Positions 4,071-62,427 of a stretch of DNA of 64,000 nt are shown here, piece by piece. Origin of the DNA: a virus (lineage: Duplodnaviria > Heunggongvirae > Uroviricota > Caudoviricetes); IMG/VR virus record IMGVR_UViG_3300032038_000042; one strand, given 5' to 3'. The notes beneath the pieces are model-generated. The model saw only the letters and a program-made list of their open reading frames with translations. It ran no database searches and was not told where the DNA came from. The position numbers and the translations under genes were made by a program. How positions within the stretch are numbered: the stretch's first letter is position 1; every line of letters starts with the position of its first letter.

Positions 4071-4831
4071 ATCCAACTTTTAGTTTGCTTTATCCAAGTT
4101 TCAATTTTTTGATTACTTAACTCATCCTTAAAAGTGTTTTTATACTTTTCAAGTATAGGTAATGAATTCCTAAATCTATTTTTTGAATTTTGTTTAGTTA
4201 AACTTCCGGGTCTATGAAAGTGTACATGGAATGCAGTAGGTAAAACTACAATTTGATTACTAACAACGTTAAAATACTTTAAGCAAAAAAGCTCTCCTTC
4301 AAAGTTTCTTAAATCAACATCAAAGTTAATTTGCGGATTTTGCTTTACAATATTTGTTGAAAAAATCAATCTATTTATGTCTGTCGGAGTCCAAGACTTT
4401 TCAAAAGCTGGACTTTTATTTGTTTGTATACAATCTTCACTTTGTAAAGTTTGAAAAATATCTTTAGTGTGTATTGTAGATGCATAAACAGCTTTTTCTG
4501 GAAAAAGTTGTAAAGCAGAGTTTACACTATCTATGTAATTTGCACTAATAGCATCATCTGGGTCTAAAAAAGAAAAGTAAGGAGTCTCTACGAATTGTAT
4601 ACCTGTATTACGAGCTGCGGCTGGCCCAGAATTAACAGCTGTACTAGTTACAACTACGTTTTTATTTTCTGCAAAAAGCTTTTTTAGAAAAAGAGGTGTA
4701 CCATCGATAGAGCAATCATCAACAAAAACAATATTAAAGTCTTTATTTTGTTGCCTTATTAAACTTAATAAGCAATAATTTAAAAATTGCATAGCGTTAT
4801 AAGTCGGTATAATTAAAGTTACTTTACTCAC
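4067..4831 (-). CDS. Family-2 glycosyltransferase (GT-A fold)
   Basis: N-terminal IIPTYNAMQFL...FNIVFVDDCSIDGT, which is the typical GT2 signature with a DxD-type motif. Confidence 0.7.
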   Translation of the reverse strand: MSKVTLIIPTYNAMQFLNYCLLSLIRQQNKDFNIVFVDDCSIDGTPLFLKKLFAENKNVVVTSTAVNSGPAAARNTGIQFVETPYFSFLDPDDAISANYIDSVNSALQLFPEKAVYASTIHTKDIFQTLQSEDCIQTNKSPAFEKSWTPTDINRLIFSTNIVKQNPQINFDVDLRNFEGELFCLKYFNVVSNQIVVLPTAFHVHFHRPGSLTKQNSKNRFRNSLPILEKYKNTFKDELSNQKIETWIKQTKSWI

Positions 4832-5681
4832 TAGTTAATCCTTTTAATGCTCTTTCTAAACGTAAAATATCTGTATCTTTTACATCTCCAGTTTTTAGAA
4901 TGTTTTTTCTAAAAAGTAAACCTTGTAATTGCTGAGTCTCTAAACTCGTGTGAAAAGTTGAAGGTATTTTTTCTCCTCTACTTTTTTCCGATGCAGAACC
5001 TTCCCCGATTTTTATATTTGAATCGTCAAATATTTTTACTTTGTTATTCAAATAACTTTTTAATAAAGCTGTCCTTTCTTGAATGAGTTTTGCTTGCTTA
5101 ATTCCCCAGTAATCTTTTGGATATCTATAATATTTATTATCTAAACCTTTATAAAAATCTGGTGCTTTATAATTATATAAAATTACTTTATTTAAATTCC
5201 AATTTAACTTTAAGTACTCTGCTAGCTCTTTTAAAGCTCGGGATTTGTCTGTGTTTGTAGGAAAGACTTGTTCGATATCCAAATCAATTACACTTTTTAA
5301 GTTTTCGTAACAAAGTGGACTATACGCATTACAAGAAAAAACAGTTTTTCCTCTATAGGTAATTTTATATGTCCGCATCTCTAATGTACTTAAATCAATT
5401 ACGAGATAGTCAGGATTTATAGACTCTATTGTAGATAATGCAGTTTTATTTAAATCAAACTGCATCGTCTTTTTTGTAAATGGAGCTGTCTCTTCTTTAC
5501 CTTTTATAAAAGGGGCTTCGTAAAAACTCTTGTAAGGAATATTCAAACCACTTTTAGTTGTAATTCCTAAAAAACAAGGTTGAAAAACATACGGTTCTAT
5601 CTCGATGTCTGTACCAGTAACAGCCTCTTTTAAAGTGTTCATACTGTTGCATACGCCAAGTAAAGCTATCTTTTTACTCAT
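4824..5681 (-). CDS. Hypothetical protein co-transcribed with the glycosyltransferases
   Basis: 285-aa ORF overlapping its neighbours by 8 and 4 nt (operon arrangement). No recognised motif. Confidence 0.5.
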   Translation of the reverse strand: MSKKIALLGVCNSMNTLKEAVTGTDIEIEPYVFQPCFLGITTKSGLNIPYKSFYEAPFIKGKEETAPFTKKTMQFDLNKTALSTIESINPDYLVIDLSTLEMRTYKITYRGKTVFSCNAYSPLCYENLKSVIDLDIEQVFPTNTDKSRALKELAEYLKLNWNLNKVILYNYKAPDFYKGLDNKYYRYPKDYWGIKQAKLIQERTALLKSYLNNKVKIFDDSNIKIGEGSASEKSRGEKIPSTFHTSLETQQLQGLLFRKNILKTGDVKDTDILRLERALKGLTSE

Positions 5682-5685
5682 CTTT

Positions 5686-7425
5686 TTAAACCTCGTAAAT
5701 GCATTTATCTGGATACAGTCTCTTAAAGGCCTCTTCTATAAGTCTATAATCCTCGTCTGTAGCTCTATCTGAATCGTTACAACAAATTGCACGAGGCCTT
5801 TCAACTGTAGTTTTCAAAGCTTCAAGAATTTTTTTCGTATCTATTCCAACTTGGAAATATTTGAATCTGAATGTTTCAAAAACACCATGTCCGTGAAAAA
5901 GTGCATACTCTGTAAATATGTACTGATTGTAATTTTTAGCTTCTCTAAAACGTGTAATCGAAGCCTCAATTAAACTTTTGTATCGTTTGAAAACCTCTAC
6001 ATTAATGGATTTTAACATTGGTTTTCCGATATGCTGTAGTTCGTATAAATGTTCTCCGTCTACGTATTTTGATAAATACTCTGGTACATCTCTAGCAGCT
6101 AACTTTAAGCAGTTAATTGGAATTTGAGCCCAAACTTGATTTATATCTCCATCGTGCCAAAGTTTTCTAATATGTAAATCTGCTTTTAATTTACCTTCTT
6201 CTGGGAAATAAAATTTCGGTTTTAAGATATCGTTTGGATACATATCATCATTTGCATATATAAACTTTTCTGACAACCCTGGGATTCTATGCAAAAACAT
6301 TTCAATAGCACAACTGTTAAACGTTGGTAAGTACTCCGCAGGAATAAAATCTTTATGTAATACAATGTGTACTTTTGTTTGATCTATCCAATCTGGTACT
6401 TGATCTGGATCAGAAACTATCATATGTATTACACTTATCCAAGGCATCCACTTTTCTATAGCTCTGAATTTATACTTAAGTAACTCTTCGTGCGCGTTAA
6501 ATCTCTGGAAGTCTATAACGTTGTTGTACTGTTTATATTGATTCTGCCATTGAGCTTTTGTACAGTCGACATACGGGAAGACATAATCGATTTGACTTGG
6601 TCGTGTAATTACACCTTCAAAATGTTTCTTAACGTTAGATTCTATATACTTAAAATTCTCAATTTTCTCTAAATCGAGTAGCATAGAACTAAAGCTTTGC
6701 AAGAACTTTATTTTTCTAGCATCTTTTAAATTACTATGTGATAACGAATTTTGCTGCAGGACGTAATTATATGTAGGTTTATCTAGAGATAATATTTTAC
6801 CAGATTTACAAACAGCCTTAATGTTAAAGATTGTATCCTCGCACATATCACAATCTGCAAACTTTATTTGATTTTCTTTTATTAAAGAGCTTTTATAGAT
6901 TTTATCCCAACAGTGCCCGATATCGTATAAAGGAGTTGATAATATTTTTCCATCCGAAATTTCGTAAATACCGGGTTCACCTAAATGCCATCTTTTTGAA
7001 ACTAATCCTTCTTTAAAAACGTTTACAGCTGTTTGTGCTATATCTACGTTTGCTTCAATTGCGCTGTTTATTAAATAACTAAAATGATTTGGCTCGATCC
7101 AGTCATCGGCATCTACAAAACCAATCCATTCTCCTTTTGAAAGGTATATACCTAAATTACGAGTTGCACCAGGACCTTCGTTAAATTTGTGAATTACTTT
7201 GAATCTAGAATCTTTAACTGCAAAATAATCGCAAATTGTACTCGAGCAATCTGTACTGCAGTCGTCTATTAAAAAGCATTCCCAGTCTGAAATATCCTGA
7301 GCTAAGATAGATTTTAGACACTTCTCTAAAAATCTTTCTGCATTGTATATTGGAATAATAATCGAAAGCTTCATACAAAATAAAATTAGTTTTTTGTAGA
7401 AAAAAGCTTCGGGATTTTTTTTCAA
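5686..7425 (-). CDS. Two-domain glycosyltransferase: N-terminal GT2 domain plus a C-terminal Stealth-like (hexose-phosphate transferase-like) domain
   Basis: The N-terminus carries LSIIIPIYNAERFL...CFLIDDCSTDCS (GT2). The C-terminal roughly 300 aa contain ...FIYANDDMYP..., reminiscent of Stealth/capsule phosphotransferase conserved regions. The Stealth call is tentative. Confidence 0.6.
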   Translation of the reverse strand: MKKNPEAFFYKKLILFCMKLSIIIPIYNAERFLEKCLKSILAQDISDWECFLIDDCSTDCSSTICDYFAVKDSRFKVIHKFNEGPGATRNLGIYLSKGEWIGFVDADDWIEPNHFSYLINSAIEANVDIAQTAVNVFKEGLVSKRWHLGEPGIYEISDGKILSTPLYDIGHCWDKIYKSSLIKENQIKFADCDMCEDTIFNIKAVCKSGKILSLDKPTYNYVLQQNSLSHSNLKDARKIKFLQSFSSMLLDLEKIENFKYIESNVKKHFEGVITRPSQIDYVFPYVDCTKAQWQNQYKQYNNVIDFQRFNAHEELLKYKFRAIEKWMPWISVIHMIVSDPDQVPDWIDQTKVHIVLHKDFIPAEYLPTFNSCAIEMFLHRIPGLSEKFIYANDDMYPNDILKPKFYFPEEGKLKADLHIRKLWHDGDINQVWAQIPINCLKLAARDVPEYLSKYVDGEHLYELQHIGKPMLKSINVEVFKRYKSLIEASITRFREAKNYNQYIFTEYALFHGHGVFETFRFKYFQVGIDTKKILEALKTTVERPRAICCNDSDRATDEDYRLIEEAFKRLYPDKCIYEV

Positions 7426-12361: not shown

Positions 12362-12733
12362 TTACACGGATTTTCTACATTGGTCTAAAAAACCTTTTCC
12401 ATATGTTTTTTCTGCATATTGTAAAAAAGGTTTTATATCATTTCCTGTAATGACATCTATCCCTAATTTATCTATCAACTCTATTTTAGCGACTTCTTTT
12501 TCGTTTAATCCTTCCGCGAGGTGCGTACCTTTAATTTCGATTAACTTATCGTGTACTTTAAAATCTGGATGAAAAATGTGGAACTTTTCATCATCTTCTT
12601 CCAGTTTATACGGTATTTCAATATCAGGATGATACTCAAACGGAATACCATAATCACGTAAATAGATGTAGTAAGCTAGCTCCCAAGAAGAGTCGAAAAC
12701 AATATTATCTAATATATACTGAACCTTTCGCAT
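12362..12733 (-). CDS. Small PD-(D/E)xK-like nuclease-fold protein
   Basis: ...DSSWE...HPDFKV...LIEIKGT shows D/E ... PD ... E-I-K spacing typical of restriction-endonuclease-like folds. Confidence 0.4.
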   Translation of the reverse strand: MRKVQYILDNIVFDSSWELAYYIYLRDYGIPFEYHPDIEIPYKLEEDDEKFHIFHPDFKVHDKLIEIKGTHLAEGLNEKEVAKIELIDKLGIDVITGNDIKPFLQYAEKTYGKGFLDQCRKSV

Positions 12734-12958: not shown

Positions 12959-14752
12959 TTAGCTCACAGCAGCTGAATTAAACACAACTTTAGACGCTTT
13001 TAATATTCGAATAAAAACCGGAGACGTATATACGACTTTTCCAAAAGTAAAATAACCTTCGTTTACAGCACAGGGTGCATCTTCTTTAACTGGTATAACA
13101 AAAGGTTTAGCGAGATTTTGACAATCTAACCAATCTGTATTTCCTTCTGATTTTATATACATTTCTCCGTCATGCTCTATATCAATATTAATGTGACTGT
13201 AGCAATCCTCTGCATCAACTTTAAAACACAATGCAGATTCGCTCGGGTCATCTATTGTATAAACTCCATGATAAAGTTTTGGTTCCCAACTTTCAAGTGC
13301 TTTTTTAGAATCCCAAGCTTCTCCATAATCTCTAAGTGGTGCATGTACACTTGCAGATGGAGTTGTAACTCTATTAGACTCATCACTGTAATCGGAATCT
13401 ATATCAAGTTTAACCTCGTAAGTAAATACATTTTCTTTTTTAATGTTAAAAGCTTTTAGCAATAAAAATCTTGAAGAGGCTTTTATTTCGATATCTTTAT
13501 CGATCTGGAACTCTCCGGAAGTCGGTTGATGTGTATCTACTTCAATATCGTAAGTAAATTGAACATTTCTATTTGCATCTAAAACGGTTAATGTAAAAGG
13601 ATGCTGCGGTCTGAAATACTGTAAGAAATTATTTTTTACAATAAAAGTAAAAGGTAAAGAGTAAATAGTATCAAATTCGTGAGGAAAATAAGCAAAACCG
13701 GATGTCCATTTTGTTTTATACTCCTGTAAAGTTTCTTTTACATAAGTATTTTCTGCTTGAGCTTGGGCTTTAGAGATGTACTCATCAACTCCAATTCTAA
13801 TCGGTTTGGATAATTTTGAGTTACCATTATCATCTGCAATTCTTACTCTTAACTCTACAAAAGGATTTAAAGGGTCGATTGTTGTAAACAAATCCAATAA
13901 ATTAAAAGTTAATGCATACTTATTTCTCCAGTAAAAAGGATTTACATCATCGACTGTATAGACATTTTCTGTTTCAAGAAGTTTCCAATAACTTCCTTTT
14001 CCTTCAAGTATATCTGCTATAGAAGCTACATGACTTGTTTTACTATCATGTACTAAAGCTATACTTGTTGCTTCTGTAAAATTGTTTGCAATACAGAATG
14101 GCTCTACAATCAATTGACAATTCTCGCAACCTGCGTAAGATTTGTAAAACTTTAAACGTAAAACATCGTACTCTTCGTTGTTTTGGTAGCAAATAGCTTT
14201 AAGAGGTTTTTCTCCATCTTGAGTAATACTTAAATTTCGTAACGGAAAGTTTGCAGCTGTAAAATCCTCGATCATGTCATCTGCATACTCTTTGGTTACA
14301 ACATCCGTCGGTTTTACTGGAATGTAACCAGGCTCCATAGTCGAGCTACCATCTTTTAAAAATACTTTTTCCTCGGTTTGGGCTGTATAAATGACTACAG
14401 AGATAGATGTAATTGGATCTATTGGTTCTACCTGACAAACAATAGATGCATAGTCTTGTTTTAAAGTCGGCAAAAATTGAAGTTCGTTTACTTGCTTACC
14501 ATTACAGTAATATTTAATACCTGTATATTTATTTTTAGGTGTTATTGCTAATTTAAGTTTTTCATTAAAAAATTGAGTTCTATACTCCGAATCTTGCGTT
14601 AAGTAAACAGTCTGACGCTTAGCAATAATTTTTCCGTTTTCATCTGCAAAGTAACCGTTTACATCCGGTACAGTATCGTAAACTTTAGCTTCGTATAATT
14701 TTATTGGTACTCCAACTCCGGAGTTTCTATCAAGTCTACCTGTCAATTCCAT
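12959..14752 (-). CDS. Hypothetical large protein (597 aa), possibly virion/tail-associated
   Basis: Long ORF divergent from the giant tail-fibre gene. No catalytic motif recognised. Confidence 0.5.
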   Translation of the reverse strand: MELTGRLDRNSGVGVPIKLYEAKVYDTVPDVNGYFADENGKIIAKRQTVYLTQDSEYRTQFFNEKLKLAITPKNKYTGIKYYCNGKQVNELQFLPTLKQDYASIVCQVEPIDPITSISVVIYTAQTEEKVFLKDGSSTMEPGYIPVKPTDVVTKEYADDMIEDFTAANFPLRNLSITQDGEKPLKAICYQNNEEYDVLRLKFYKSYAGCENCQLIVEPFCIANNFTEATSIALVHDSKTSHVASIADILEGKGSYWKLLETENVYTVDDVNPFYWRNKYALTFNLLDLFTTIDPLNPFVELRVRIADDNGNSKLSKPIRIGVDEYISKAQAQAENTYVKETLQEYKTKWTSGFAYFPHEFDTIYSLPFTFIVKNNFLQYFRPQHPFTLTVLDANRNVQFTYDIEVDTHQPTSGEFQIDKDIEIKASSRFLLLKAFNIKKENVFTYEVKLDIDSDYSDESNRVTTPSASVHAPLRDYGEAWDSKKALESWEPKLYHGVYTIDDPSESALCFKVDAEDCYSHINIDIEHDGEMYIKSEGNTDWLDCQNLAKPFVIPVKEDAPCAVNEGYFTFGKVVYTSPVFIRILKASKVVFNSAAVS

Positions 14753-15017
14753 TTGTAATTTCCTCTACTTCGATGTTGGAGAATTTTCCAGTTGCATAAA
14801 ACTCAATAAAATTAAAAAGATCTTTTGCAGCTTTTACATCTCGTTTATCCAAGCTATCTGGTCCATCTTTTAAGGCTTGTTTAATAAATTTATGTTCACC
14901 TGGAAAATCGTCTACTTTTGCTAAAACTTTATCCGGATTAGTTGCTAAATCGTTTATAAAAATATTCAACCAATTTGATGTAACTTGTGTAAACTGTTCG
15001 CTGTTTTCTACATTCAT
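14736..15017 (-). CDS. Hypothetical protein (93 aa)
   Basis: ORF overlapping the downstream gene by 17 nt. Confidence 0.4.
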   Translation of the reverse strand: MNVENSEQFTQVTSNWLNIFINDLATNPDKVLAKVDDFPGEHKFIKQALKDGPDSLDKRDVKAAKDLFNFIEFYATGKFSNIEVEEITNGIDR

Positions 15018-15046
15018 AATAGCAATTAGTTAATAGCTTAACTAAT

Positions 15047-18000
15047 TTGAATATTATGTTAACAGCTGAAACTAAAACAAGCACACTTTGGAAAGCCCAC
15101 AAAGGTTGGGGTTCTACACATACAGAAAGAGAAACATTTGAAGAGTTATATAGATCTTTTAAAGAAATTTCTAGTAACTCGATTTTAGCTTACGGAGATT
15201 TACTTCCAAGAAAACCTACAGACCAGTTTTTTGAGGATGTAAAAGCGCTCGATGCTACAAACGATACTGTTTACTATAAAGAGTCTTCTTTTAGAACTAT
15301 TCCTTTAATCAAAAAACATGTTAATGTAAGACTTACACCTGTTTCGCAGAATTGTGATCATGCATTCGTTATTGCAGATGTAAAAGGTAATCAGATTAAA
15401 AATATCATTCCGTACGATTTTAGTGATAGTGGAATTTACAACTACAAGCTTACGGACTTTTATGGTAATGAAATTCCATGGGGTATTTGCGACTGGGTTA
15501 TAGATACCAACTCTAGTTTGTTAACATTTAACAATGGAATACCAGACACTGTTAGTGCAGCTTATCCTCCAAAATTAACTTTTTATCAGTACATCGGACC
15601 TGTTGGAGAAAGACATTATATAGATGCTGTATTGTTTGATATTACAGAAGCTGTTTACGAACCATATAAACCGGTTTTGGATATTACAGATCTTGTATCA
15701 ACTCAACTTGATCAAATTGAAAAGGACTTTTTTAACAAAACAAAATTCTCCGGAGATGATACAAACCCTGGTATTGGTTTACAATATAACGTCTTATCTA
15801 ATGTAATTAAAACTGCGACTCAAGATCCAATAAAAGGTTACGACGATAATAGTAAAGCTCAAGTTGTAAGTTTAATTTCTCATTTAAAAGGTTCTACAAC
15901 AGATGCAGAAGTTCTATTTGTAAGTGAAGGAATTGATACTTCAAAAACATATAATATTCAAATAGAAGAAGGTGCAGCCGAAAAAGATAATATTGCTAAA
16001 ATAGAAACTGAAGATGGTTTTTTCATCATCCGAGGTTTGCCAGGAAATTATCAAGTAACAGTAGAGGAAGATCAAAGAGCATATGCAGCTCTTTTAGTTA
16101 AGGATAACGATACTCAAGAATACGAGGTTTTTTATCCAAGAGAAGAGTTAAATGTTACTTTAAAACTTCCAGTATTTGTAGATTTAATTAATTTCCCTCC
16201 ACATTTAAAGTTAACTACATTAACATCTTACTCGGATCACATTACACCACAATTTTACGGTCCACGTGTTGCGGACTTTGTAATTGCAGCAGGTAACTCT
16301 ACAGTTAATTGGCGTTCTGCAGATTATGTAGTTTACAATTATGAGGGTTTTTTCTTAAGAGATGCAATCGCAGCAAGAGAAGGTAATCACATTTTCTTAA
16401 GAAACGGTATTTACGAAAATGATAATAAAGAATTGCTCATTCCAAACAACATTTATCTGCACGGTGAATCTCGAGAAGAAGCAATCATTAAAAATGCAAA
16501 AATTAGATTAGGTAAAGATGCAAGCTTAGATACTCTCAGTTTTCAAGACTGCGAAGTAATAGTTGATAGTTATGCAGCAATAAAGAATTGTAATTTTACA
16601 AATACTCCAGTTTATGTAAGAAATGGACAAAAAACAGCTGTAATGCATGGTTGTTCTTTTGAAGATTTGGAAATAGATGGAAACGATCACATTGCAGATT
16701 CTCAGGTTTTACGATTAAAGATAACAGGTTCTGCAAACTTGTTCGGTACAGCTGTTGTTGAAACTTTAGATGTAAATAACGGAACTTTTGAAGCATTCGG
16801 GTCTTACATAAAGAGTTTTAAGCACACAGATGGAACATTTTACATAAACTCATGTAACATCGGAACATTAAATGTAATAAATAGTAGCAAAAATTCTGTA
16901 TTAAATACAACTGCAATCGGTTATGTTGAAAATCTTCCAGACTTTATCAAAATCGATACGAGTTATGTAACAAAGTTTTCTGACAAAATTACAAGAAGAG
17001 TTTATCCAGATGAAGCTACAATTCCGTATTACTCAAGTTTCGAAAGAAGAGTTTACGCAAAGTTACCAGATCCATTCTTATATGATGAAGAAACAAATAA
17101 ATTAAATATAAAAATCGATACAATTGAGCATACGATTTTTATTAACAAAAACGGTGAACTTCAATGTAGATTCTTCTCTGCAGATGAGATTTGGATTAAA
17201 GATCCCGATATTTTTAAAACTCAAATTGAAGATGTTTACAGTGAACATGCAGATACAAAATTAGATCATCCAAAGCCAATTCATGTAGAAGAGGCTTTAG
17301 TTGATATATACTGGTCTAAAGCAGATTTAAAAAATGGTAAAGTTCCAATCAGTCAACTTCCAGATTCTGTTGCTTACGGTGGTTTAAGTTTAGTTGGAAT
17401 GTGGTCTTTTGAAGACAGCGAAGGTAAATATCCAACTTTTGCAGATGTAGATACTCAATTTGGATCTGATGACGAATATACAGGGTTACAAAACGGTTGG
17501 TTCTTTATTGTAAGTGCATCTCATGCAGAAGATGATCCAGTTAAACCTCAATATTCAGAAGATGGTGTTGAATGGACTGCGGGTGACTGGATTATTTATA
17601 CAGGTGGAAAAAAGCATCTTATAGACTACTTAAAACCAATTCGTTTCTTGTATAAAGGTCAAAATGCAAGCTTACTAGAGAGTTCAAACGAAACTGTTAC
17701 GTATGAAATTCCATTAGAAAAGATAAAGCATGAAGTTTCTGGGGATGGAAGTTTTGAAGGCTCTTACGAAGGTAGCTATGAAGGTTCTTACGAGGGTAGT
17801 TACGAGGGAAGCTCAGAATCGAGTGGTGGAGGTGTTACTGTAATTGATTATGGTACAGTAACAATTGATAAAGAAGGAAAAATTGTAAAGACTTATAACT
17901 TACCTCGTACTTTTACAATTGGTAAGCTATTAAAAGATGTTCCTGGACTTTATATTCGAGAGTATCAATACTCAATGGTATCAGATGGAGATAGCTGGTC

Positions 18001-19771
18001 AAAATTAGATAGAGCTTATCTCGACCCTGTATACTCAAGATTACCAAACTTAGCAACTGCTGCAGGTGCAGACAATCCACAATGGTCTATTGAAGATGGA
18101 GGAACAGGTCTTTTAAGACTTTCTTATAAGTCCCTTGCAGAAGCAATTCGCTTAATTAACGAAACTCTTTTAAAGCTTTCTCCGGATAGACCTACATCTA
18201 TTCAAAACATCGATGTAATTTTTGATGAAGAAAAAACTACAGCTAAGCTTATAGATGTATATCCTATCAGTACAGGTTTGCAATTAAATCAAGTTATTAA
18301 AGAAAACGAACCTTTACATTATTATGATTCTGATTCCGGAAAAATATGCTTTAAGCAAAAAGGTGATCATGATTATTTACCTCTTGAGAATTGTTTTTAC
18401 TGCGGTACTTCATCAACAATAAAAGTTTTAGACTACGAAGGAGACAAAACAGAGGATGTTACCGATAAATATGCAACAATCGAAAGGTTTGATCCTTATC
18501 AAAAATACAGATTAGGTTTTAGAGCACCAACTGTAATGGATGCTGCAGAGGTATCTGGTACAATAAATCTCGGAGAAGGTGATTTTAGAGTTGCTCATAA
18601 GGTAAGGTTTGTACAAGAGGATTTAGTATGCACACCACAAGTAACAGACTTAAAAGAGACTTTAGAAGGTGAAACACGTTCATTTATAAGCTTTGTAGAA
18701 AGTAAAATTTATAAATTCGAATCGATAAAAGTTCAACCGTGTACAGCTCAAACAGTTAACTTGCGTGTCTTGAATACTTTCTTAAACTCTTGTAGGACAG
18801 GTGGATACGGATACGTACCAAACGGACAAAAAATTACCGGTACATTCTTAATTAAAAACTTTACAAAATACGGAGTTGTAGGTAAGGATGCTAATATCGA
18901 ATTAGCAGCTACATTTGCAGGTATTGATTTACCAATTACAATTGAATCTCAAACATTACTTGAAACAGATACAACGTACGAAACTTTTGATTTGGAAGTT
19001 GCATTTACTACTACTTTGCCAGCAGAAAAGGATTATTACGATAGTCAATTGTTGGTAACTGTAAGCGCAAGAAACTTCGATCAAGAAATTAAAAATGAGC
19101 AAGTTTTACTTATAAAAGATTTAATTACAATCAATCCCGATTCAATTCAAAAAATTGTTGAGCCAAGTGGTGCACTACTTTATCCGACTCTTGGAAGAGG
19201 TTCAAATACTTTCGGAGATGAGTATTTAGGTAAAACAGTTCTAAATGTAATCAATAGTCCAGAGCTTGTTTGGGAAGAAAACGGTTATGGTTGGCCAAAA
19301 AGGAGTAAGTTTGTAGATAGATTTAACTTACCAGAAAACGATTATGCAATTCCGGAGCAGAATGGTATAATTGTAGGTGACAATACCTATAGGTTTGTTT
19401 GCTATAAGTTTAGTTTTGACAAAATTCAGGATTTGTGCGGCTTTAATGTAAATTTTGAATGGGCTGAAAACGAACCTAAGTTAAAATCTATAGATGGTAC
19501 TTACGAAAACATAATGCTTCAAGTTTGTGTAGATTCTTTAGAAGCAAAACATAAATATTTGTTAAACGGAAATAAAGCAGTTCCAGTTTTCTTTGAAGCT
19601 ACTTTTGAACAAGATGAAACTTGCAACCACCCAGGAAAAAGTAATTTAACAAAACGAAGAATTACATTTGGTAGAAAACCTATTCCTATACAAGATATTT
19701 ATATAAGAGTTGGTGTTGCAAAAGATTCAGGTGTTAGAATTAAAAAATGCTATGTGACAACAGAGGAGTAA
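15047..19771 (+). CDS. Giant tail-fibre / tailspike-like protein with a parallel beta-helix (pectate-lyase-like depolymerase) region and a (GSYE)n repeat
   Basis: 1574-aa ORF with a TTG start at 15047 (the first ATG is at 15056). Residues about 430-620 show repeated NxxIxG / N-rich beta-helix rungs (…NAKIRLGKDASLDTLSFQDCEVIVD…NCNFTNTPVYVRNG…). GSYEGSYEGSYEGSYEGS lies at nt about 17758-17810. Confidence 0.6.
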   Translation: MNIMLTAETKTSTLWKAHKGWGSTHTERETFEELYRSFKEISSNSILAYGDLLPRKPTDQFFEDVKALDATNDTVYYKESSFRTIPLIKKHVNVRLTPVSQNCDHAFVIADVKGNQIKNIIPYDFSDSGIYNYKLTDFYGNEIPWGICDWVIDTNSSLLTFNNGIPDTVSAAYPPKLTFYQYIGPVGERHYIDAVLFDITEAVYEPYKPVLDITDLVSTQLDQIEKDFFNKTKFSGDDTNPGIGLQYNVLSNVIKTATQDPIKGYDDNSKAQVVSLISHLKGSTTDAEVLFVSEGIDTSKTYNIQIEEGAAEKDNIAKIETEDGFFIIRGLPGNYQVTVEEDQRAYAALLVKDNDTQEYEVFYPREELNVTLKLPVFVDLINFPPHLKLTTLTSYSDHITPQFYGPRVADFVIAAGNSTVNWRSADYVVYNYEGFFLRDAIAAREGNHIFLRNGIYENDNKELLIPNNIYLHGESREEAIIKNAKIRLGKDASLDTLSFQDCEVIVDSYAAIKNCNFTNTPVYVRNGQKTAVMHGCSFEDLEIDGNDHIADSQVLRLKITGSANLFGTAVVETLDVNNGTFEAFGSYIKSFKHTDGTFYINSCNIGTLNVINSSKNSVLNTTAIGYVENLPDFIKIDTSYVTKFSDKITRRVYPDEATIPYYSSFERRVYAKLPDPFLYDEETNKLNIKIDTIEHTIFINKNGELQCRFFSADEIWIKDPDIFKTQIEDVYSEHADTKLDHPKPIHVEEALVDIYWSKADLKNGKVPISQLPDSVAYGGLSLVGMWSFEDSEGKYPTFADVDTQFGSDDEYTGLQNGWFFIVSASHAEDDPVKPQYSEDGVEWTAGDWIIYTGGKKHLIDYLKPIRFLYKGQNASLLESSNETVTYEIPLEKIKHEVSGDGSFEGSYEGSYEGSYEGSYEGSSESSGGGVTVIDYGTVTIDKEGKIVKTYNLPRTFTIGKLLKDVPGLYIREYQYSMVSDGDSWSKLDRAYLDPVYSRLPNLATAAGADNPQWSIEDGGTGLLRLSYKSLAEAIRLINETLLKLSPDRPTSIQNIDVIFDEEKTTAKLIDVYPISTGLQLNQVIKENEPLHYYDSDSGKICFKQKGDHDYLPLENCFYCGTSSTIKVLDYEGDKTEDVTDKYATIERFDPYQKYRLGFRAPTVMDAAEVSGTINLGEGDFRVAHKVRFVQEDLVCTPQVTDLKETLEGETRSFISFVESKIYKFESIKVQPCTAQTVNLRVLNTFLNSCRTGGYGYVPNGQKITGTFLIKNFTKYGVVGKDANIELAATFAGIDLPITIESQTLLETDTTYETFDLEVAFTTTLPAEKDYYDSQLLVTVSARNFDQEIKNEQVLLIKDLITINPDSIQKIVEPSGALLYPTLGRGSNTFGDEYLGKTVLNVINSPELVWEENGYGWPKRSKFVDRFNLPENDYAIPEQNGIIVGDNTYRFVCYKFSFDKIQDLCGFNVNFEWAENEPKLKSIDGTYENIMLQVCVDSLEAKHKYLLNGNKAVPVFFEATFEQDETCNHPGKSNLTKRRITFGRKPIPIQDIYIRVGVAKDSGVRIKKCYVTTEE

Positions 19772-20964: not shown

Positions 20965-21711
20965 TCACTCGTTATCGTTACCAGTTTCAAATGAACTGTC
21001 TCCGAAAATCCAATCAAGAGCATCTTCATAATCCTGGGAAGCCAAAGTTCTACAATCTGGATTTTCCCTTGGATCTGACTGATGATCGATGTAACCACCA
21101 AAATCAATCCAATTGGAAATATCTGGATGTGCTTTCCATTCATTCAATGGAGCTTCTTTCAAGTGCTCCAAAGATTTAATGAAGCAACTCTCTCCGTAGT
21201 CACCCTCTGTCTCCCAAAAGGTGTCTCGATCATCTCCAATGAATTTGTGTTCTTCGTTCATGTAGTGGAAGTAACTGAATTTGCAACCCTTTTCTTTAAG
21301 GAAATCAAAAAGACCTTTTACTTTATCGTAAGCAAGATTGCGGATGTAATTGACATTTTCTTCATCAATTTCCTTGTAGTGCTTAATCCAATATTCATCG
21401 TTCTTTTCTTTTGCTCTTGCAATGTCCGTTAGCGAGCCAAAACAAAATGAATACTCTCCCCAGGACTTTTCAAGGTTGTGACGTTCTCCATACTCATTTT
21501 TCTGCATAAGGGAAAGCCAATCGCATAAAGCAACCAGGTAGTAAGAAAACTTTGACTGTGAATCAGAGTAACTTTCGAACTCCCATCCGAACTCATCACC
21601 TTTCCAATTTAAAGTACCATTTTTACCTGCACCGCTTCCTTTTGAAGCGAATGTAAGTGAATGTGCTGAACTTGAATTTGTTTCAAACGTATTTATACGA
21701 ATCGATTTCAT
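20965..21711 (-). CDS. Member 1 of the MKSIR-xx-TFETNSSS-xHS N-terminal family (acidic, 248 aa)
   Basis: N-terminus MKSIRINTFETNSSSAHSLTF. It shares its first ~18 residues with the ORFs at 32513, 40449 and 46999, which otherwise have unrelated bodies. Confidence 0.55.
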   Translation of the reverse strand: MKSIRINTFETNSSSAHSLTFASKGSGAGKNGTLNWKGDEFGWEFESYSDSQSKFSYYLVALCDWLSLMQKNEYGERHNLEKSWGEYSFCFGSLTDIARAKEKNDEYWIKHYKEIDEENVNYIRNLAYDKVKGLFDFLKEKGCKFSYFHYMNEEHKFIGDDRDTFWETEGDYGESCFIKSLEHLKEAPLNEWKAHPDISNWIDFGGYIDHQSDPRENPDCRTLASQDYEDALDWIFGDSSFETGNDNE

Positions 21712-23429
21712 GCTTCCTCCAAAAACTGGCTAAATTGTTTAATCTGACTTGCTGTATAAACCTTTTCAATTGGCATATCAATCTTTCTACACCAGTCGGA
21801 AACGATTGAAGGATCGATATACGAATTTTTTGCTGTTCCTGACGTAAAATTCTGGTTACGTTCTTTTGACTCAAGGTTAAGCTCAGCTTGATCGATTTTA
21901 GCTTTTGATTTTTCAATCTGCTCTTTCAAAGCTTTAATCTTATCCTTGTAACCATCCTTTTTAGCAGCTTTCAAAGCCTTGATCTTTTCTTCACGCTTTT
22001 TATTCTGCTCTACAACTTTTGCTTTACGCTCGTCGAGTTTTTCTTCAGAAGCTTTGAAGCTTGCTTTACGCTTTTCTTCAGCAACCTTATTTACACCACG
22101 CTGATGATTCAAACGACGTGCAACCTGCATTGTAGCTTCATCAAATGCAATCTTTTTAAGTGCAATTGGCGAATCTTTTGTTACTTTGAACTTTGCAGTC
22201 ATCTCTTCAAGTGCTTTAGTAGCTGTATAAGCTGCAACTGCAGTACGTGCAAGTTTTGGAGTAAAGATTCCGTCAAGCTCTGGAACGACCTGAGAAATGT
22301 ATTGCTTAATCTGAAGCTTATCTGTCTTGAGCTTTTTGTCCTTTGCCCAAGTTTCTTCAATAACATCTGCATATTCAGTTTCAATTACGCTTGTATCTCT
22401 TACAGAATCTTTTCCGTAAAAGTCAAACTTAATTTTATTTCCTGAACGCTTAACTTCTTTTCCCCATTCAAGTGCAAGAAGCCCTTTTGTACCATTTATA
22501 GTTTCGCTTGCAGAACCAATTCGAATACCTTTTTCGAAAAGCATGAAAACTGCAACTGCTGTACTCAAGTCCTTTTTTGCTTTAAAATCGCTTGCTATTT
22601 TTGCAAGTACTTTTTCGTAAGATTTTCCAAGTGTTGCTCCTGCAGCGTACTTTTTTGTCTGGCCTTCCTTCTTTACGGAAGAAGCAGCAGCAAACTGAAT
22701 CATCTTGTATTTTGTTGACTTAAGTGTTTTGATAGAACCATCTGCATTTGGAATTCCAACATTAATGTTGTACTGAGCAGCAAAATGTGATTCTGGATTC
22801 CAATCAACGTTCCAAGCAAAACCACTTGTAATTAGCATTTCACCATCTTCGCCATAATAAAGCACTTCTGGAAGCTTTTTGCTGTTTGTGTTAAGTTTAA
22901 CATCTGCAGCTGTATTTTCGAATTTCCAATATCCGTTAAGGGGTGAATCTCCTCGTCCGAAGAAAATTCCTTCTGGTTCAATTGTCCAGCTTGCAAGCGG
23001 TTCGTCGTTACCGTTAATCTTTACAATACCGTATTTTGCTTTAAGTTCTTCATTCTGCTTTTTGATTTCGGCTGCATTAGCCTTTTTCCAAGCAGCTTTG
23101 CATTCTTTTGCTTCCGCGTACCATTTACGCCATTTTGCAATTTCTTTATCGTTTGCTACAAAATTAACCAAATCTGGATACTTTGTAAAGTCTTTTCCAC
23201 CTGCAGAAGCAATGCAGGTAAAAACACGCTTAATAAACTTTGTATCCTGCATGCAAGGAAGTTCCGGATTAATACGACAAAAAGCTCCAAAAATGCGGTC
23301 TGAAAGTTTATTTTTATCTGCAAAAGGGGGAACTGGGATTCTTGCTGGAATACCAATTCCTTTTATTTCTACTGATGTTAAATCCTGTAACTTCATTTCG
23401 TAACCTCGCCGTATAATATAGTGATACAC
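21708..23429 (-). CDS. Type IB DNA topoisomerase (573 aa) with an N-terminal extension and a coiled-coil linker between the catalytic His and Tyr
   Basis: ...FYGKDSVRD... (Arg), ...TPKLARTAVAAYTATK... (Arg), ...ARRLNHQRG... (His) and ...GTAKNSYIDPSIVSDWCRK... align with poxvirus/bacterial TopIB motifs (...GTSKLNYLDPRITVAWCKK...). About 95 residues of K/E-rich heptad sequence separate the His and Tyr. Confidence 0.7.
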   Translation of the reverse strand: MYHYIIRRGYEMKLQDLTSVEIKGIGIPARIPVPPFADKNKLSDRIFGAFCRINPELPCMQDTKFIKRVFTCIASAGGKDFTKYPDLVNFVANDKEIAKWRKWYAEAKECKAAWKKANAAEIKKQNEELKAKYGIVKINGNDEPLASWTIEPEGIFFGRGDSPLNGYWKFENTAADVKLNTNSKKLPEVLYYGEDGEMLITSGFAWNVDWNPESHFAAQYNINVGIPNADGSIKTLKSTKYKMIQFAAASSVKKEGQTKKYAAGATLGKSYEKVLAKIASDFKAKKDLSTAVAVFMLFEKGIRIGSASETINGTKGLLALEWGKEVKRSGNKIKFDFYGKDSVRDTSVIETEYADVIEETWAKDKKLKTDKLQIKQYISQVVPELDGIFTPKLARTAVAAYTATKALEEMTAKFKVTKDSPIALKKIAFDEATMQVARRLNHQRGVNKVAEEKRKASFKASEEKLDERKAKVVEQNKKREEKIKALKAAKKDGYKDKIKALKEQIEKSKAKIDQAELNLESKERNQNFTSGTAKNSYIDPSIVSDWCRKIDMPIEKVYTASQIKQFSQFLEEA

Positions 23430-27260: not shown

Positions 27261-28550
27261 ATGTGGAAAATTCACGGAGAAATGGTCTCTAACGAAAGAG
27301 ACGTAATGGAACATTTTGGTCTAAAATACCCACCTATTGTAAAATCACTTTTGGATACCGACTTATATAAGTATAGCATGGGCCAAACGTATCATCATCA
27401 ATTTGGAAATCTAAAGACAACTTGGGATTTTAAAGCTCGCAATGTTGGCGAAAACACAACTCACACTTCTATCTATACAGAAGAGGACAAAAAAGAGATA
27501 AACAATCAGCTTTGCGCTTACGCAGCACTTCGTTTTGATGAAGATGAATTGCAATATCTCAATGCAAAATGTCCTTGGATTAAGCAAGATTACATCAACT
27601 TCTTGCGCTTTTGGCATCCACGCCTAGAAGACTTTCAATGCACAACTAACAACAAGTTCGGTAATGGAATTATGTTTTTTGGTGTTCAAGAGTATATTGA
27701 ATACTACGAGATTCCAGTCCTCGAAATTTTTGCCGAAGTCTATTACAGAAACCACTACAATTATGATGAGCTTCTTGCAGGTTTCAAAGAAAAGACTAAC
27801 GAAAAAATCGCTGAAATGAAGAGCAACAAAGACCTTCATTTTGGAACTTGGTCAGAGTTTGGAGCACGTCGTCGCCTTTCATTTGAAGCTCAAGACTGGT
27901 TGATTGGTCGTCTTACAGAAGAAAAGCTTCCAGGTTTTATTGGAACTTCAAACGTTCTTTTGGCAAAAAAGTATAAAGTCACACCTGTTGGAACTTGTGC
28001 TCATGAATTTATTGAATGCGTTGGCCAGGGAAATCCAATGTACAATCCAGCTTACAGCAATAAGATTGCAATGGAAGCTTGGATAAAAGAATATGGTGTT
28101 TGGAACGGAATTTGGTTGACTGACACTATTGGTGATGAACTTTGCCGTAGAGACATGCAAAAAACTTATGCAACACTTTTCAGTGGAGTTCGTAACGATT
28201 CCGGAGATCCATTTAAGTGGGCAGATGATTGGATAAATCATTATACCAATCTTGGAATTGATCCAAAAACCAAAACTTTGCTTTTCAGTAACAGTATAAA
28301 TTCTCTTGAGCTTTGGTCAAAGTTGTGCTTTTATGTCGAAGGTCGTGCTAAACCTGCTTTCGGAATTGGAACGTATTGGTCTGGCCCGCAAACTATTGAT
28401 CCTCTTAACATTGTTGCAAAAGTCGTTCTTGTAAATGGAAAAGATGTTGCAAAACTTTCTGATGATAGCGGAAAGACAATGAGTCGTAGTCAAGAGTATG
28501 TTGATTACCTTCGCAGAACTCTCGATTGGCGTTTAAAATCTGAGGAGTAA
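27261..28550 (+). CDS. pncB: Nicotinate phosphoribosyltransferase
   Basis: ...SLLDTDLYKYSMGQTYHHQFGN... matches the PncB N-terminal signature (E. coli ...[20 protein letters not shown]...). The 429-aa length is typical. Strong SD. Confidence 0.8.
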   Translation: MWKIHGEMVSNERDVMEHFGLKYPPIVKSLLDTDLYKYSMGQTYHHQFGNLKTTWDFKARNVGENTTHTSIYTEEDKKEINNQLCAYAALRFDEDELQYLNAKCPWIKQDYINFLRFWHPRLEDFQCTTNNKFGNGIMFFGVQEYIEYYEIPVLEIFAEVYYRNHYNYDELLAGFKEKTNEKIAEMKSNKDLHFGTWSEFGARRRLSFEAQDWLIGRLTEEKLPGFIGTSNVLLAKKYKVTPVGTCAHEFIECVGQGNPMYNPAYSNKIAMEAWIKEYGVWNGIWLTDTIGDELCRRDMQKTYATLFSGVRNDSGDPFKWADDWINHYTNLGIDPKTKTLLFSNSINSLELWSKLCFYVEGRAKPAFGIGTYWSGPQTIDPLNIVAKVVLVNGKDVAKLSDDSGKTMSRSQEYVDYLRRTLDWRLKSEE

Positions 28551-28553
28551 AAA

Positions 28554-29135
28554 ATGATTACACCAAAACTTTTGAATAAAACAAAAGAAGTAGACCTTAT
28601 CAAAACTCCAGTCTTTACTGTTGTTGAAAAAGAATACGAAAATCTGGAATTCAAACCAGTAGGATTGAATTGCAAAGATTGGGTAATGGTTATTGCTAAA
28701 GACTCAATTTCAGATCCAGTCTGTGTTTTTGTAAAGCAAACAAGATGGGGTTGTGAGCATTCCACAATTGAATTTCCTTGCGGTACAGTAGACTTAAATG
28801 AAAGTCCTGTAGAAGCTGCAGTAAGAGAATTTCGAGAAGAAACAGGTATTGAGGTTGCACAATCTTCGTTAAAAGAGATTGCAACATTCAATCCAAATCC
28901 AGCTTACTTTAACAATCTTATGCACATTTTTGAATTTGTAGACAGAGGTTTGTTGAGCAAGTTCTTAAATAAGAAAAAGCAAAAGCTGGATAAAAACGAG
29001 GATTGCGAAGTCTTTGTTGATAGACTTGAAAATCAAGCAACACTCTTAAAGAAAGGTGGAATGAGTTTAATTGGATATGTATATGCTTCAAAAGTAAATA
29101 CATCTGCAAAGTACGAATTGAAGGAGATTAAATAA
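28554..29135 (+). CDS. Nudix hydrolase
   Basis: Perfect Nudix box GTVDLNESPVEAAVREFREETGI (Gx5Ex7REUxEExGU). Confidence 0.75.
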   Translation: MITPKLLNKTKEVDLIKTPVFTVVEKEYENLEFKPVGLNCKDWVMVIAKDSISDPVCVFVKQTRWGCEHSTIEFPCGTVDLNESPVEAAVREFREETGIEVAQSSLKEIATFNPNPAYFNNLMHIFEFVDRGLLSKFLNKKKQKLDKNEDCEVFVDRLENQATLLKKGGMSLIGYVYASKVNTSAKYELKEIK

Positions 29136-29136
29136 C

Positions 29137-29712
29137 ATGAAAAATAAATTTTTAGTTGTAATTGATATGCAGAATGATTTCTGTACAGGTGCTTTGAAAA
29201 ACGATGATGCAGTAGCTGTAATTCCTTTTATTAAAAAGCAGATTGAGGAAGCTCGTAAGAATGGTACTCGAATTGTTTATACTCGCGATACTCACGGAAG
29301 CGATTATATGGAAACACTCGAAGGAAAGCATCTTCCATTTCCTCACTGCTTGAATGAATCCTTTGGTTGGGAAATCGTAGATGAACTTAAACCAGTTAAT
29401 CCGATAGTATTTGCTCCCTTTGGAGTTATTTGTAAGATGATTGAGAATGATCCAAAAGCCGATATTGTTGTAAACAAAAATCATTTCGGTTTTGATGGAT
29501 GGAAACATCTCATTCCAGAAGATTCAGAAGTAACAATGGTTGGAACTTGTACAGATATCTGCGTGGTTTCAAACGCATTAGCTATTAAGACTATTGAAGG
29601 TGTTGAAGTAACAATTCTTGCAAATGGTTGCGCTGGTTTGACAAAAGAAAAGCACGAACATGCTCTTGATGTAATGGAAAGTTGTCAGTGTAAAGTTGTT
29701 AGAGGAGAGTAA
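29137..29712 (+). CDS. pncA: Nicotinamidase (isochorismatase-family cysteine hydrolase)
   Basis: FLVVIDMQNDFCTGAL aligns with E. coli PncA LLLVDLQNDFCAGGAL. Catalytic Cys context ...VGTCTDICVVSNA. Confidence 0.75.
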   Translation: MKNKFLVVIDMQNDFCTGALKNDDAVAVIPFIKKQIEEARKNGTRIVYTRDTHGSDYMETLEGKHLPFPHCLNESFGWEIVDELKPVNPIVFAPFGVICKMIENDPKADIVVNKNHFGFDGWKHLIPEDSEVTMVGTCTDICVVSNALAIKTIEGVEVTILANGCAGLTKEKHEHALDVMESCQCKVVRGE

Positions 29713-29714
29713 AA

Positions 29715-30524
29715 ATGGGTCCAAAAAAGTTCGATGTAAAAGAAGTTCACGACGAGATTATTGAGTTTATTAAAGACTTCTTTAAGGATAAAAATGGTCC
29801 TGCTACATTAGGAATTTCCGGGGGAAAGGACAGTACCATTTGTGCAGCTTTGTTAGCAGAAGCTTTAGGTCCAAAAAGAGTTGTTGGCGTAATGATGCCA
29901 AACGGTGTCCAGATGGACCTTAACGACTCTGTCAAAGTTTGTGAACTTTTGGGAATTCAGGCAATGAAAGTAAACATTGGTCCAGTTTACGATGCTTTGA
30001 GAGATCAGATTGATACATCTGATATTAAAGAGTCTCCTGATCAGTGGACACCTCTTTTCACAACAAATACTCCTGCACGACTTCGAATGGTAACACTTTA
30101 CGGTATTGCTGCTCAACTTGGCGGCTTTGTTTGCAACACTTGCAACTATTCAGAAGACTTTGTCGGTTACTCTACAAAGTATGGAGATTGTTGCGGAGAC
30201 TTTTCTTTATTGAATCAGCTTACAAAAACTGAAGTTGTTGCTTTAGGTGACTATATGAAACTTCCAAAAGAGTTAGTTCATAAAACACCTTCGGATGGAA
30301 TGTGCGGAAAGAGTGATGAAGATAATATGGGCTTTACATATGACTCTTTGGATACTTTTATCAGAACTGGATTAGCTCCAAAATCATTTGAAGTTTATAA
30401 CAAAATCAAAAAGATGCATCTCAATCCAAATACAAAACTAAAGTTGCTGCCAATGTCTTATCCGGAATTGCATTTGGAAGAAAATTGGAAGTTTGAAGAC
30501 CCAATTGGAGAAGTTTTAGCTTAA
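29715..30524 (+). CDS. nadE: NH3-dependent NAD+ synthetase
   Basis: PP-loop GISGGKDSTICAALL (SGGxDS). The 269-aa length matches NadE. Confidence 0.75.
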   Translation: MGPKKFDVKEVHDEIIEFIKDFFKDKNGPATLGISGGKDSTICAALLAEALGPKRVVGVMMPNGVQMDLNDSVKVCELLGIQAMKVNIGPVYDALRDQIDTSDIKESPDQWTPLFTTNTPARLRMVTLYGIAAQLGGFVCNTCNYSEDFVGYSTKYGDCCGDFSLLNQLTKTEVVALGDYMKLPKELVHKTPSDGMCGKSDEDNMGFTYDSLDTFIRTGLAPKSFEVYNKIKKMHLNPNTKLKLLPMSYPELHLEENWKFEDPIGEVLA

Positions 30525-32427: not shown

Positions 32428-32512
32428 ATTTAAAATTAGTTTGAAAACTGCGTACCGGAAAAGCCTATATTGTATATGTATTGTATTTTTGGGAATCCAA
32501 AGGAGATAAAAA

Positions 32513-60744: not shown

Positions 60745-61065
60745 ATGACATTACTTGATCATCAGTTTCTTTTAAGTCTTCCAAAACGGAGAGGTTTTAC
60801 AAAGTGTACAATAAATAACAATGTATACGCAAATATCTACACACTTGGAATTCCGAACAGAGCTTCTAAGTCAGGTTATTCATATTTCTGCGGAACAGAT
60901 AAAGGTAATCCGTGGAAAGGAAGAGAGAATGCGATAGACGAGATTTACCACGATTTGAAGGATTACGTCGATCGCAGAATTGGTACAGAATTTGAAAAAA
61001 ATGTAAAGGATTTAATTCCTTACGTAAAGCGTTTTGAAAGAGCATTTCCAGGAGTATTGAAGTGA
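60745..61065 (+). CDS. Hypothetical protein (106 aa) preceding rtcB
   Basis: ORF with an ATGA overlap into rtcB. Confidence 0.45.
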   Translation: MTLLDHQFLLSLPKRRGFTKCTINNNVYANIYTLGIPNRASKSGYSYFCGTDKGNPWKGRENAIDEIYHDLKDYVDRRIGTEFEKNVKDLIPYVKRFERAFPGVLK

Positions 61066-62291: not shown

Positions 62292-62309
62292 AGTTTTTCT
62301 AAAACTTTT

Positions 62310-62370
62310 TTAGTCAAGATCGACTATATTCATTCTTGAACAGTTGAAAAAATTAGTCGATCTTGACTAA
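62310..62370. repeat. Perfect 17-bp inverted repeat (TTAGTCAAGATCGACTA ... TAGTCGATCTTGACTAA) with a 27-nt spacer
   Basis: Read directly: 62310-62326 is the reverse complement of 62354-62370. It could be the rtcB terminator or a protein-binding/recombination site. Confidence 0.6.
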
Positions 62371-62384
62371 CTAAAAATTAGCAC

Positions 62385-62409: not shown

Positions 62410-62427
62410 TTTTTACAAAAAAAGTTA

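Follow-up and report, generated by a model that had tools for sequence, protein, structure and literature searches.

A putative fibre- or spike-like surface adhesin of an uncultivated huge phage, with a lineage-variable insertion in one hairpin

Introduction

Phage tail-fibre and minor-tail proteins with the motif KADLxxGK(V/I)PxSQLP (PHROGs 13892, 31460, 35419, 2952 and 2824; some also in PF12789) usually hold this motif 3-15 times, in 350-3500 residues of repeats. Other described proteins with which a fibre-like gene may be compared are the beta-helix tailspikes, such as P22 gp9, CBA120 TSP3 (PDB 6nw9/5w6f) and the 'Pectate lyase superfamily' proteins of uncultured Caudovirales; the Gram-positive surface adhesins PrgB and antigen I/II together with the Ig-like decorations of phages; and surface proteins with contingency-type in-frame tandem repeats. 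Here we compare with them the largest open reading frame (ORF) in a 64,000-nucleotide stretch of tailed-phage DNA, the IMG/VR virus record IMGVR_UViG_3300032038_000042 (hereafter the window; G+C 30-37%). An earlier note, made from the letters of this DNA alone, had described a tail-fibre-like protein that combines a polysaccharide depolymerase fold with a repetitive hinge. Our analysis suggests that this ORF of an uncultivated huge phage encodes a fibre or a spike-like adhesin on the surface of the virion, a reading to which we give a probability of about one in two. The likely task of the protein is adsorption to the host envelope, which it would perform by adhesion and not as a conserved enzyme.

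Results

The ORF list and translation place the largest ORF of the window at 15047..19771 on the plus strand. The TTG at 15047, which the earlier note had taken as the start, is merely the earliest possible start following a stop. We rejected it because every full-length homologue (all 40+ aligned with BLASTP and MAFFT) begins at the fourth codon of the query, with the sequence MLT..KTSTLWK, so that the start is the ATG at 15056 and the product has 1571 residues. Residue numbers below nevertheless count from the TTG at 15047. No N-terminal hydrophobic signal sequence or membrane segment is visible in the translation of the 1571-residue protein.

15056..19771, plus strand: coding sequence of the 1571-residue protein, ATG start, stop codon counted in (ORF list, translation, homologue alignments)

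Searches with the whole protein returned no Pfam family at E<=1, no PHROG at E<=0.01, no match by megablast or tblastn in 50,697 GenBank phage records and no relative in sequence searches of the PDB. The sole functional evidence at the sequence level comes from a small domain in the middle of the protein, which indicates a virion fibre and is encoded in two parts.

17282..17608, plus strand: fibre-type small domain, first part, aa 746-854 (...YWSKADLKNGKVPISQLPDSVAYGG...GWFFIV...GDWIIYTGG), holding the conservation peak of 0.9
17996..18016, plus strand: fibre-type small domain, closing strand WSKLDRA, aa 984-990 (homologue comparison, hhalign)

An exhaustive HMMER search with a profile of aa 640-1574 against 1.84 billion representative proteins found 73 proteins only, ~50 of them full-length-type members of 1400-1980 aa. 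The significant hits outside the family, about 15-20 in number and with E-values of 1e-7 to 8e-4 in this library of 1.84e9 proteins, nearly all match profile positions ~106-220 only. The matched segment reads DLYWSKADLKNGKVPIxQLPDSVAYGG...GWFFIV...GDWxIYxG..WxKxDR, with the motif at aa 758-772. When 18 of these outside proteins were scanned, 14 fell into PHROGs named tail fibre, minor tail, tail, virion structural or head decoration and four reached no PHROG; the Pfam family 'Phage tail repeat like' was matched by one protein and BppL_N by one. Several contain the complete ~100-residue domain beyond the motif, and profile-profile comparison of the small domain with hhalign gave a probability of 99.7% (E 8e-26, 95 columns) against a comparison set that the profile of the family had itself retrieved. 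As judged by sequence comparison, then, the protein holds the motif together with the full ~100-residue tail-fibre domain. This domain has no Pfam model and, in a PDB search with its profile, no solved structure; a match to TbpB (E 0.01) consists of a short GK.P..QLP..G...Y.G.W string and was treated as chance.

To view the small domain and its surroundings at the level of structure we used two AlphaFold2 monomer models made with 36-sequence alignments, one of aa 4-790 (mean predicted local distance difference test score, pLDDT, 75.6) and one of aa 740-1574 (pLDDT 79.7). The two parts of the small domain are separated by an insertion, which in the model is a small beta module broken by an acidic disordered loop.

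17609..17995, plus strand: insertion that varies among lineages, aa 855-983, within the final hairpin of the fibre-type domain (homologue comparison, AlphaFold2)
17726..17836, plus strand: disordered acidic Ser/Gly/Tyr/Glu-rich loop, aa ~894-930 (pLDDT about 31-34)
17747..17818, plus strand: six GSxE units, GSFE-(GSYE)4-GSSE, with the perfect (GSYE)4 at 17759-17806, aa 905-920

Across 195 family sequences, GDWxIY and WxKxDR are separated by as few as 4 aa, which form no more than the turn of the hairpin, and by as many as 417 aa, and the inserts fall into at least 12 classes that have no BLASTP similarity to one another. Such turnover would be typical of exposed, host-facing sites. The class to which the insert of the window belongs has 38 members of 105-151 aa, in which a low-complexity stretch rich in S, D and E is always present (for example GSYEDSYEGSYEDDD in P0004 and GSYEGSYENSYESSYESSSE... 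in P0003).

The earlier note was right that a perfect (GSYE)4 peptide is encoded here by imperfect 12-nt DNA repeats. Tandem Repeats Finder reports a period of 12, 3.5 copies and 70% matches; the serine codons run TCT/AGC/TCT/AGT, and the 24-nt halves differ solely at synonymous third positions, so that the peptide has been conserved while the DNA drifted. The hinge or linker proposed for this stretch holds as far as flexibility is concerned, but the repeat joins no two halves of the protein and instead forms a loop within a lineage-specific insertion. The proposed length variation by slippage likewise stood in part. Three proteins from the 90%-identity cluster of P0003 (P0149, P0150 and P0155) have 2, 4 and 5 xSYE units and lengths of 1572, 1580 and 1584 aa, and the three genes are 97.4-98.0% identical. 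The sole gap in their alignment falls at the repeat and measures 0, 24 or 36 nt, always a whole number of 12-nt units. Length variation by unit number is therefore real in this sister lineage. The window itself has no near-perfect DNA units by Tandem Repeats Finder, and its repeat is a poor slippage substrate because the DNA is only ~70-79% self-identical.

We consider it possible, though tentative, that the last hairpin of this small, widespread phage-fibre domain is a plug-in site at which host specificity is changed, in this huge-phage clade, by exchanging unrelated modules of 0 to ~420 aa, with GSYE-type units tuning reach or charge in one sub-lineage. On this proposal specificity would change at one loop of a conserved ~1500-residue fibre and not by a swap of the C-terminus. 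The acidic loop itself would, at a guess, be a flexible spacer.

A parallel beta-helix, which the earlier note had placed at nt 16330-16910, is borne out, with nearly the span given there, by AlphaFold2 and by Foldseek, in whose searches the beta-helix and the Ig-like parts outweighed the N-terminal domains and the last C-terminal one.

16379..16936, plus strand: short right-handed parallel beta-helix, aa ~445-630, boundaries approximate (AlphaFold2; Foldseek against PDB and BFVD)

In the model of aa 4-790, strands of 3-7 residues recur every ~6-7 residues over this region, with pLDDT mostly >90, and the sequence and the strand pattern suggest some 9 rungs, each 16-21 aa long. Conservation is good in the cap at the N-terminal end of the helix (NHIFLRNGIY...GES) and poor in the body. 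At E<=0.001 Foldseek matched exclusively right-handed parallel beta-helix proteins in the PDB, including a GH87 glucanase (4e-6) and the CBA120 tailspike TSP3 (8e-4), with weaker matches to a PL6 alginate lyase, a pectin methylesterase, the P22 tailspike and the adenovirus cement protein LH3. The best match in BFVD was a 'Pectate lyase superfamily protein' of uncultured Caudovirales (2e-7), followed by tailspikes and tail fibres. These matches reach probabilities of up to 1.00 at identities of 8-16% and with poor global superposition; the handedness was inferred from them. At the level of fold, the modelled right-handed beta-helix is thus confirmed.

Does the helix make the protein a tailspike depolymerase, that is, a polysaccharide lyase or hydrolase with which the phage would clear a path to the cell surface through the capsule or exopolysaccharide of the host? 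The closest structural matches are glycan-degrading enzymes or enzymatic tailspikes (GH87, PL6, pectin methylesterase, CBA120 TSP3, P22 gp9), residue E474 in the first rung is about 97% conserved, and lineage-dependent specificity could erase conservation across the family. Against this, no profile of the pectate-lyase/beta-helix superfamily (Pfam clan of PF12708 and PF13229) matches the protein at E<=1, and none of 29 distant family members matches Beta_helix, Pectate_lyase or any other Pfam family at E<=0.001. No residue between aa ~474 and ~617 is conserved at 90% or more, and E474 is the sole D, E, K, R, H, Y or W conserved at 80% or more in aa 470-620, even in the 17 closest relatives. 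The helix has just ~9 short rungs, two of which are wholly missing in each of three lineages (P0032, P0037 and P0089), and the Foldseek matches, besides their low identities and poor superposition, extend to non-enzymatic viral beta-helices such as LH3. With E474 as the one well-conserved charged residue of the helix and with rungs missing, a catalytic site common to the family is unlikely; active sites particular to single lineages could exist in the helix. We therefore do not retain the depolymerase role that the earlier note had attached to this fold, and rate it as unlikely for this protein.

The remainder of the protein comprises the following parts.

15056..16321, plus strand: N-terminal region, aa 4-425, the part with the highest overall conservation (0.5-0.78 in the family; pLDDT pattern)
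16937..17281, plus strand: conserved connector, aa 631-745, short strands and then a low-confidence, partly helical segment
18017..18196, plus strand: conserved linker and alpha-helix (conservation 0.8; AlphaFold2 model)
18197..19768, plus strand: C-terminal beta-sandwich or Ig-like array, aa 1051-1574 (AlphaFold2 pLDDT mostly >90; Foldseek)

The N-terminal region contains confident beta-rich domains at aa ~60-380, and two further segments, aa ~12-44 and ~389-425, show no structure in the monomer model despite their high conservation; aa 4-425 may be the part used for virion attachment or oligomerisation. A sub-domain at aa 84-181 (window 15296-15589) recurs in a 455-residue ORF of the 636-kb uncultured phage LR756504 (L011 6734-8101; pairwise BLASTP 2e-10), with the pattern NIIPYDF..YNY.L...G..IPWG..DW.VDT.S.LLTF...P..TFYQY.G, and seems to be a second small module common to huge-phage proteins. 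When the distant family member P0187 was used in tblastn, only its ~125-residue N-terminal sub-domain was matched, again in the unannotated LR756504. Downstream of the small domain, aa 991-1050 comprise a linker (YLDPVYSRLP...GGTGLLRL) that is unstructured in the monomer model and then the helix LSYKSLAEAIRLINETLLKL (aa 1025-1044), together a putative neck or oligomerisation element.

For aa ~1051-1574, Foldseek returned the Ig-like domains of PrgB (8e-6), the C-terminal domains of antigen I/II, a sialidase with a galactose-binding module and Ig Fc. The modelled C-terminal stack of beta-sandwiches thus resembles bacterial surface adhesins, and its last ~45 residues (RRITFGRKPxPxxDIYxRxG) are well conserved. 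Ig-like or beta-sandwich arrays would also suit a non-essential, Hoc-like decoration or 'whisker' of the capsid or tail surface, whose domains bind mucus or glycans or stabilise the particle and which is not the primary receptor-binding protein. Several other observations fit such a decoration: some PHROGs in which the KADL motif occurs are annotated 'head decoration protein' or simply as virion structural proteins, the capsid-cementing beta-helix LH3 is among the structural matches, and the gene adjoins a terminase-like P-loop gene (see below) and not tail genes. Yet full length is strictly conserved in all clade members found, which argues for an essential role, and an almost invariant N-terminus of 425 residues combined with cassette-like turnover of inserts better suits a host-range element. 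A decoration is therefore doubtful in our view. Two other candidates were rejected outright, a tape-measure protein, since the protein is almost all beta, and a virion RNA polymerase or other enzyme, since conserved catalytic motifs and matching folds are absent.

A profile from 33 diverse homologues shows how conservation is distributed along the protein. Values are mostly 0.65-0.78 over aa 1-450, with dips to 0.49-0.56 near aa 211-240 and 301-330; they fall to 0.37-0.50 in the helix body (aa 451-600), the lowest outside the insertion, peak at 0.90 at aa 751-780 and are intermediate in the C-terminal half. Among 83 P0037-type variants (94-100% identical) the N-terminal 420 residues are almost invariant and substitutions cluster in the late helix and in the C-terminal half, a pattern of microdiversity that would fit an anchored N-terminus and exposed distal parts. 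A baseplate or tail structural component, associated with the wedge or hub and buried at both ends so that only the central insertion and the helix are exposed, could account for some of these features. Both termini and several linkers are highly conserved but unstructured in the monomers, suggesting that they fold with partners, and the variable part is the middle of the protein. No likeness to any known baseplate family was found, however, and the neighbours are not recognisable tail genes, and we think a baseplate role quite unlikely.

The family is made up of unnamed proteins. Searching 5.8 billion proteins by a word index gave 170 homologues with 39-61% identity, located on metagenomic contigs of up to 403 kb and also on two IMG/VR viral contigs. 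One lies on a 65-kb contig binned into a 'Treponema' metagenome-assembled genome; this contig is mis-binned and too weak a basis for naming a host. The family comprises ~170 clusters, one with 378 member sequences. Given the limited spread of the homologues and of the HMMER matches, it is confined to a clade of uncultivated huge phages. Searched against PHROGs, the 29 distant members reached two families and no others: phrog_8578, of unknown function and with 3 members, and, weakly, phrog_9417, with 2 members. We saw no link of the window to the Lak megaphages; the Lak preprint (10.1101/356790) did not settle the matter, and the presence of Lak genomes in the phage collection was unconfirmed. 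A literature search on the clade found nothing specific.

The gene is flanked by conserved neighbours.

12959..15017, minus strand: divergent neighbours of 597 aa and 93 aa (synteny in L005 and L006/L007, 44-59% identity)
15024..15049, no strand assigned: perfect palindrome AATTAGTTAA-TAGC-TTAACTAATT (10+10) in the 38-nt spacer separating the divergent start codons
19776..20906, plus strand: downstream syntenic P-loop NTPase with a Hint-like C-terminus (PHROG 1.5e-8 to 2e-3)

The block of the 597-residue gene and a ~90-residue gene on the minus strand followed by the big gene and the P-loop gene on the plus strand is conserved in relatives at ~60% identity. The upstream divergent gene had been called structural-like in the earlier note; it is syntenic in relatives, but Pfam, PHROG and PDB searches with the 597- and 93-residue proteins gave no match and hence nothing structural, and no neighbour of the big gene is recognisable as structural. 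PDB sequence searches with the 597-residue neighbour, two foreign insert modules and the small-domain profile gave chance-level matches only.

The P-loop gene has weak PHROG matches to a primase, a helicase loader and the terminase large subunit. Its last ~110 residues resemble the N-terminal half of a Hint domain or intein (sub-threshold Pfam matches to Intein_splicing at 0.003 and to Hint at 0.004); nothing follows this part within the ORF, and the next genes lie on the other strand. The gene is 76-82% identical in L005 and L007, and in L007 (14720-17707) it is split in two by a 410-residue ORF with a weak DUF7487 match, whose C-terminal ~120 residues resemble a 123-residue ORF of the window (12362-12733) that has weak PHROG endonuclease matches. 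It may be an ATPase with a split intein or one invaded by a homing element.

In more distant relatives only the gene of topoisomerase IB stays near the big gene. In the window this gene, at 21708-23429 on the minus strand, encodes a eukaryotic-type DNA topoisomerase IB (Pfam Topoisom_I 8e-19, Topoisom_I_N 3e-14, Topo_C_assoc 2e-13). It is 64% identical in L001 and has no tblastn match in the 50,697 GenBank phage records.

This setting bears on whether the protein belongs to the particle at all, as opposed to being a non-virion surface or intracellular protein of the phage that acts, for example, in superinfection exclusion or host manipulation. A neighbourhood rich in DNA-metabolism genes would suit such a protein. 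Nevertheless, neither a signal peptide nor a membrane segment is visible, homology outside the family is solely to phage fibre and tail proteins, and in fold the protein resembles viral spikes and adhesins, making a non-virion role very improbable.

The palindrome upstream of the gene is a candidate promoter or operator, to judge from its sequence. Its right arm contains AACTAATTT(G/T), which is kept 5-10 nt before the ATG of the homologous gene in distant relatives (L001, L004, L005 and L007-L010) and resembles the Bacteroidota -7 promoter box, TAnnTTTG. Further copies of the 9-mer AACTAATTT occur at 7383-7391 and 32433-32441, both on the minus strand. All three copies in the window stand 5-8 nt ahead of the ATG of a long ORF, the genes behind them being the fibre-like gene, a GT2+Stealth glycosyltransferase gene and a gene for a secreted nuclease. 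Three copies are no more than chance would give (3.6 expected), and scans for promoters and terminators gave background level only.

The wider window holds further recognisable genes. Two glycosyltransferase genes lie at 4067-7425 on the minus strand, one GT2 and the other a fusion of GT2 with Stealth CR2 (capsule-type hexose-1-phosphoryltransferase family); their products could modify the host surface or virion proteins. More speculatively, the Ser-rich acidic loop of the big protein might be a substrate of these GT2/Stealth glycosyl- or phosphoglycosyl-transferases, encoded 8-11 kb upstream; the GT2+Stealth gene (5686-7425) has the AACTAATTT upstream motif in common with the big gene. Four consecutive genes of NAD salvage and synthesis at 27261-30524 on the plus strand encode an NAPRTase-family phosphoribosyltransferase, a NUDIX hydrolase, an isochorismatase-family (nicotinamidase-like) enzyme and NAD synthase. 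At 63-1127 on the minus strand is a gene for a multi-pass membrane protein (membrane segments read by eye) with a C-terminal GGDEF diguanylate cyclase domain (Pfam 4e-12). An RtcB RNA ligase gene (Pfam 3e-63) occupies 61062-62771 on the plus strand, and the only tRNA gene of the window, tRNA-Arg(TCT), follows ~400 nt downstream.

Discussion

How might a protein with these parts work as a fibre or spike? We propose that the nearly invariant N-terminal ~425 residues would dock it to the particle and aid oligomerisation, and that the short, fast-evolving beta-helix of ~9 rungs would form a rigid non-catalytic shaft or a binding face. The ~100-residue fibre-type domain (KADLxxGKVPxSQLP...GDWxIYxG|WxKxDR) comes next, followed by the conserved helix as a neck and by four or five beta-sandwich domains, which would make up the distal end. 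Within the fibre-type domain, the final hairpin is an insertion hot-spot that holds unrelated modules according to lineage; the module here is a small beta unit with a disordered acidic GSxE loop, whose number of units can shift by 12-nt steps. While the folds, the domain homology, the pattern of conservation, the turnover of inserts and the repeat polymorphism in relatives come from the models and comparisons themselves, presence in the virion, oligomeric state, the part that binds the host and the role of the acidic loop are what we infer in this scheme.

Several points weigh against a surface fibre. The protein reaches no tail family of PHROGs or Pfam directly, so that the link rests on one ~100-residue domain, and the KADL motif is found in PHROGs of head-decoration and generic structural proteins as well. 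Around the gene lie the P-loop NTPase, topoisomerase IB and unannotated genes, with nothing recognisable as tail or baseplate next to it. The models are monomers of two separate pieces with predicted template modelling scores (pTM) of 0.39 and 0.56 and do not give the arrangement of the domains. Finally, classical receptor-binding proteins are usually most variable at the C-terminus, and this protein is conserved end to end, its extreme C-terminus included. For the receptor-binding module suggested in the earlier note, a fibre or spike remains the best reading of the folds and of the ~100-residue domain, whereas end-to-end conservation is atypical of a mosaic receptor-binding protein.

If the protein is an adsorption fibre, it offers an entry point to the host range of widespread uncultivated huge phages, whose proteins are almost all unannotated, and the engineering of fibres could profit from a natural model in which cassettes are exchanged at one loop of a compact, recognisable domain. 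Our analysis tempers the common shortcut from a predicted beta-helix in a phage protein to a depolymerase, for which such a helix alone is no evidence. Most likely, the protein is an unannotated form of a familiar kind, with the cassette site as the only feature beyond the ordinary.

The comparison with known systems runs as follows for each part of the protein. With the KADL tail-fibre and minor-tail proteins it shares the motif and the complete domain (G.W...G.YY/FFIV...GDWxIYxG..WxKxD), but it holds a single copy within a 1571-residue multi-domain protein, its last hairpin has a 129-residue insertion, and it reaches none of their PHROGs and not PF12789. The beta-helix tailspikes belong to the same fold class and, like this protein, have domains that flank the helix on both sides; here the helix is about half as long and variable in its number of rungs, sequence-family membership and conserved catalytic residues are absent, and ~940 more residues follow the helix. 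PrgB, antigen I/II and the Ig-like phage decorations are alike in fold to aa ~1051-1574, with identities to the PrgB and antigen I/II stalks of 8-11% (E 1e-5 to 1e-3), as for a generic fold, and no sign of common descent or of isopeptide bonds. As in contingency-type tandem repeats of surface proteins, alleles that are 97-98% identical differ by exact in-frame 12-nt units; here the units tune length and do not switch expression, the DNA units are imperfect, and the variation is seen in a sister lineage.

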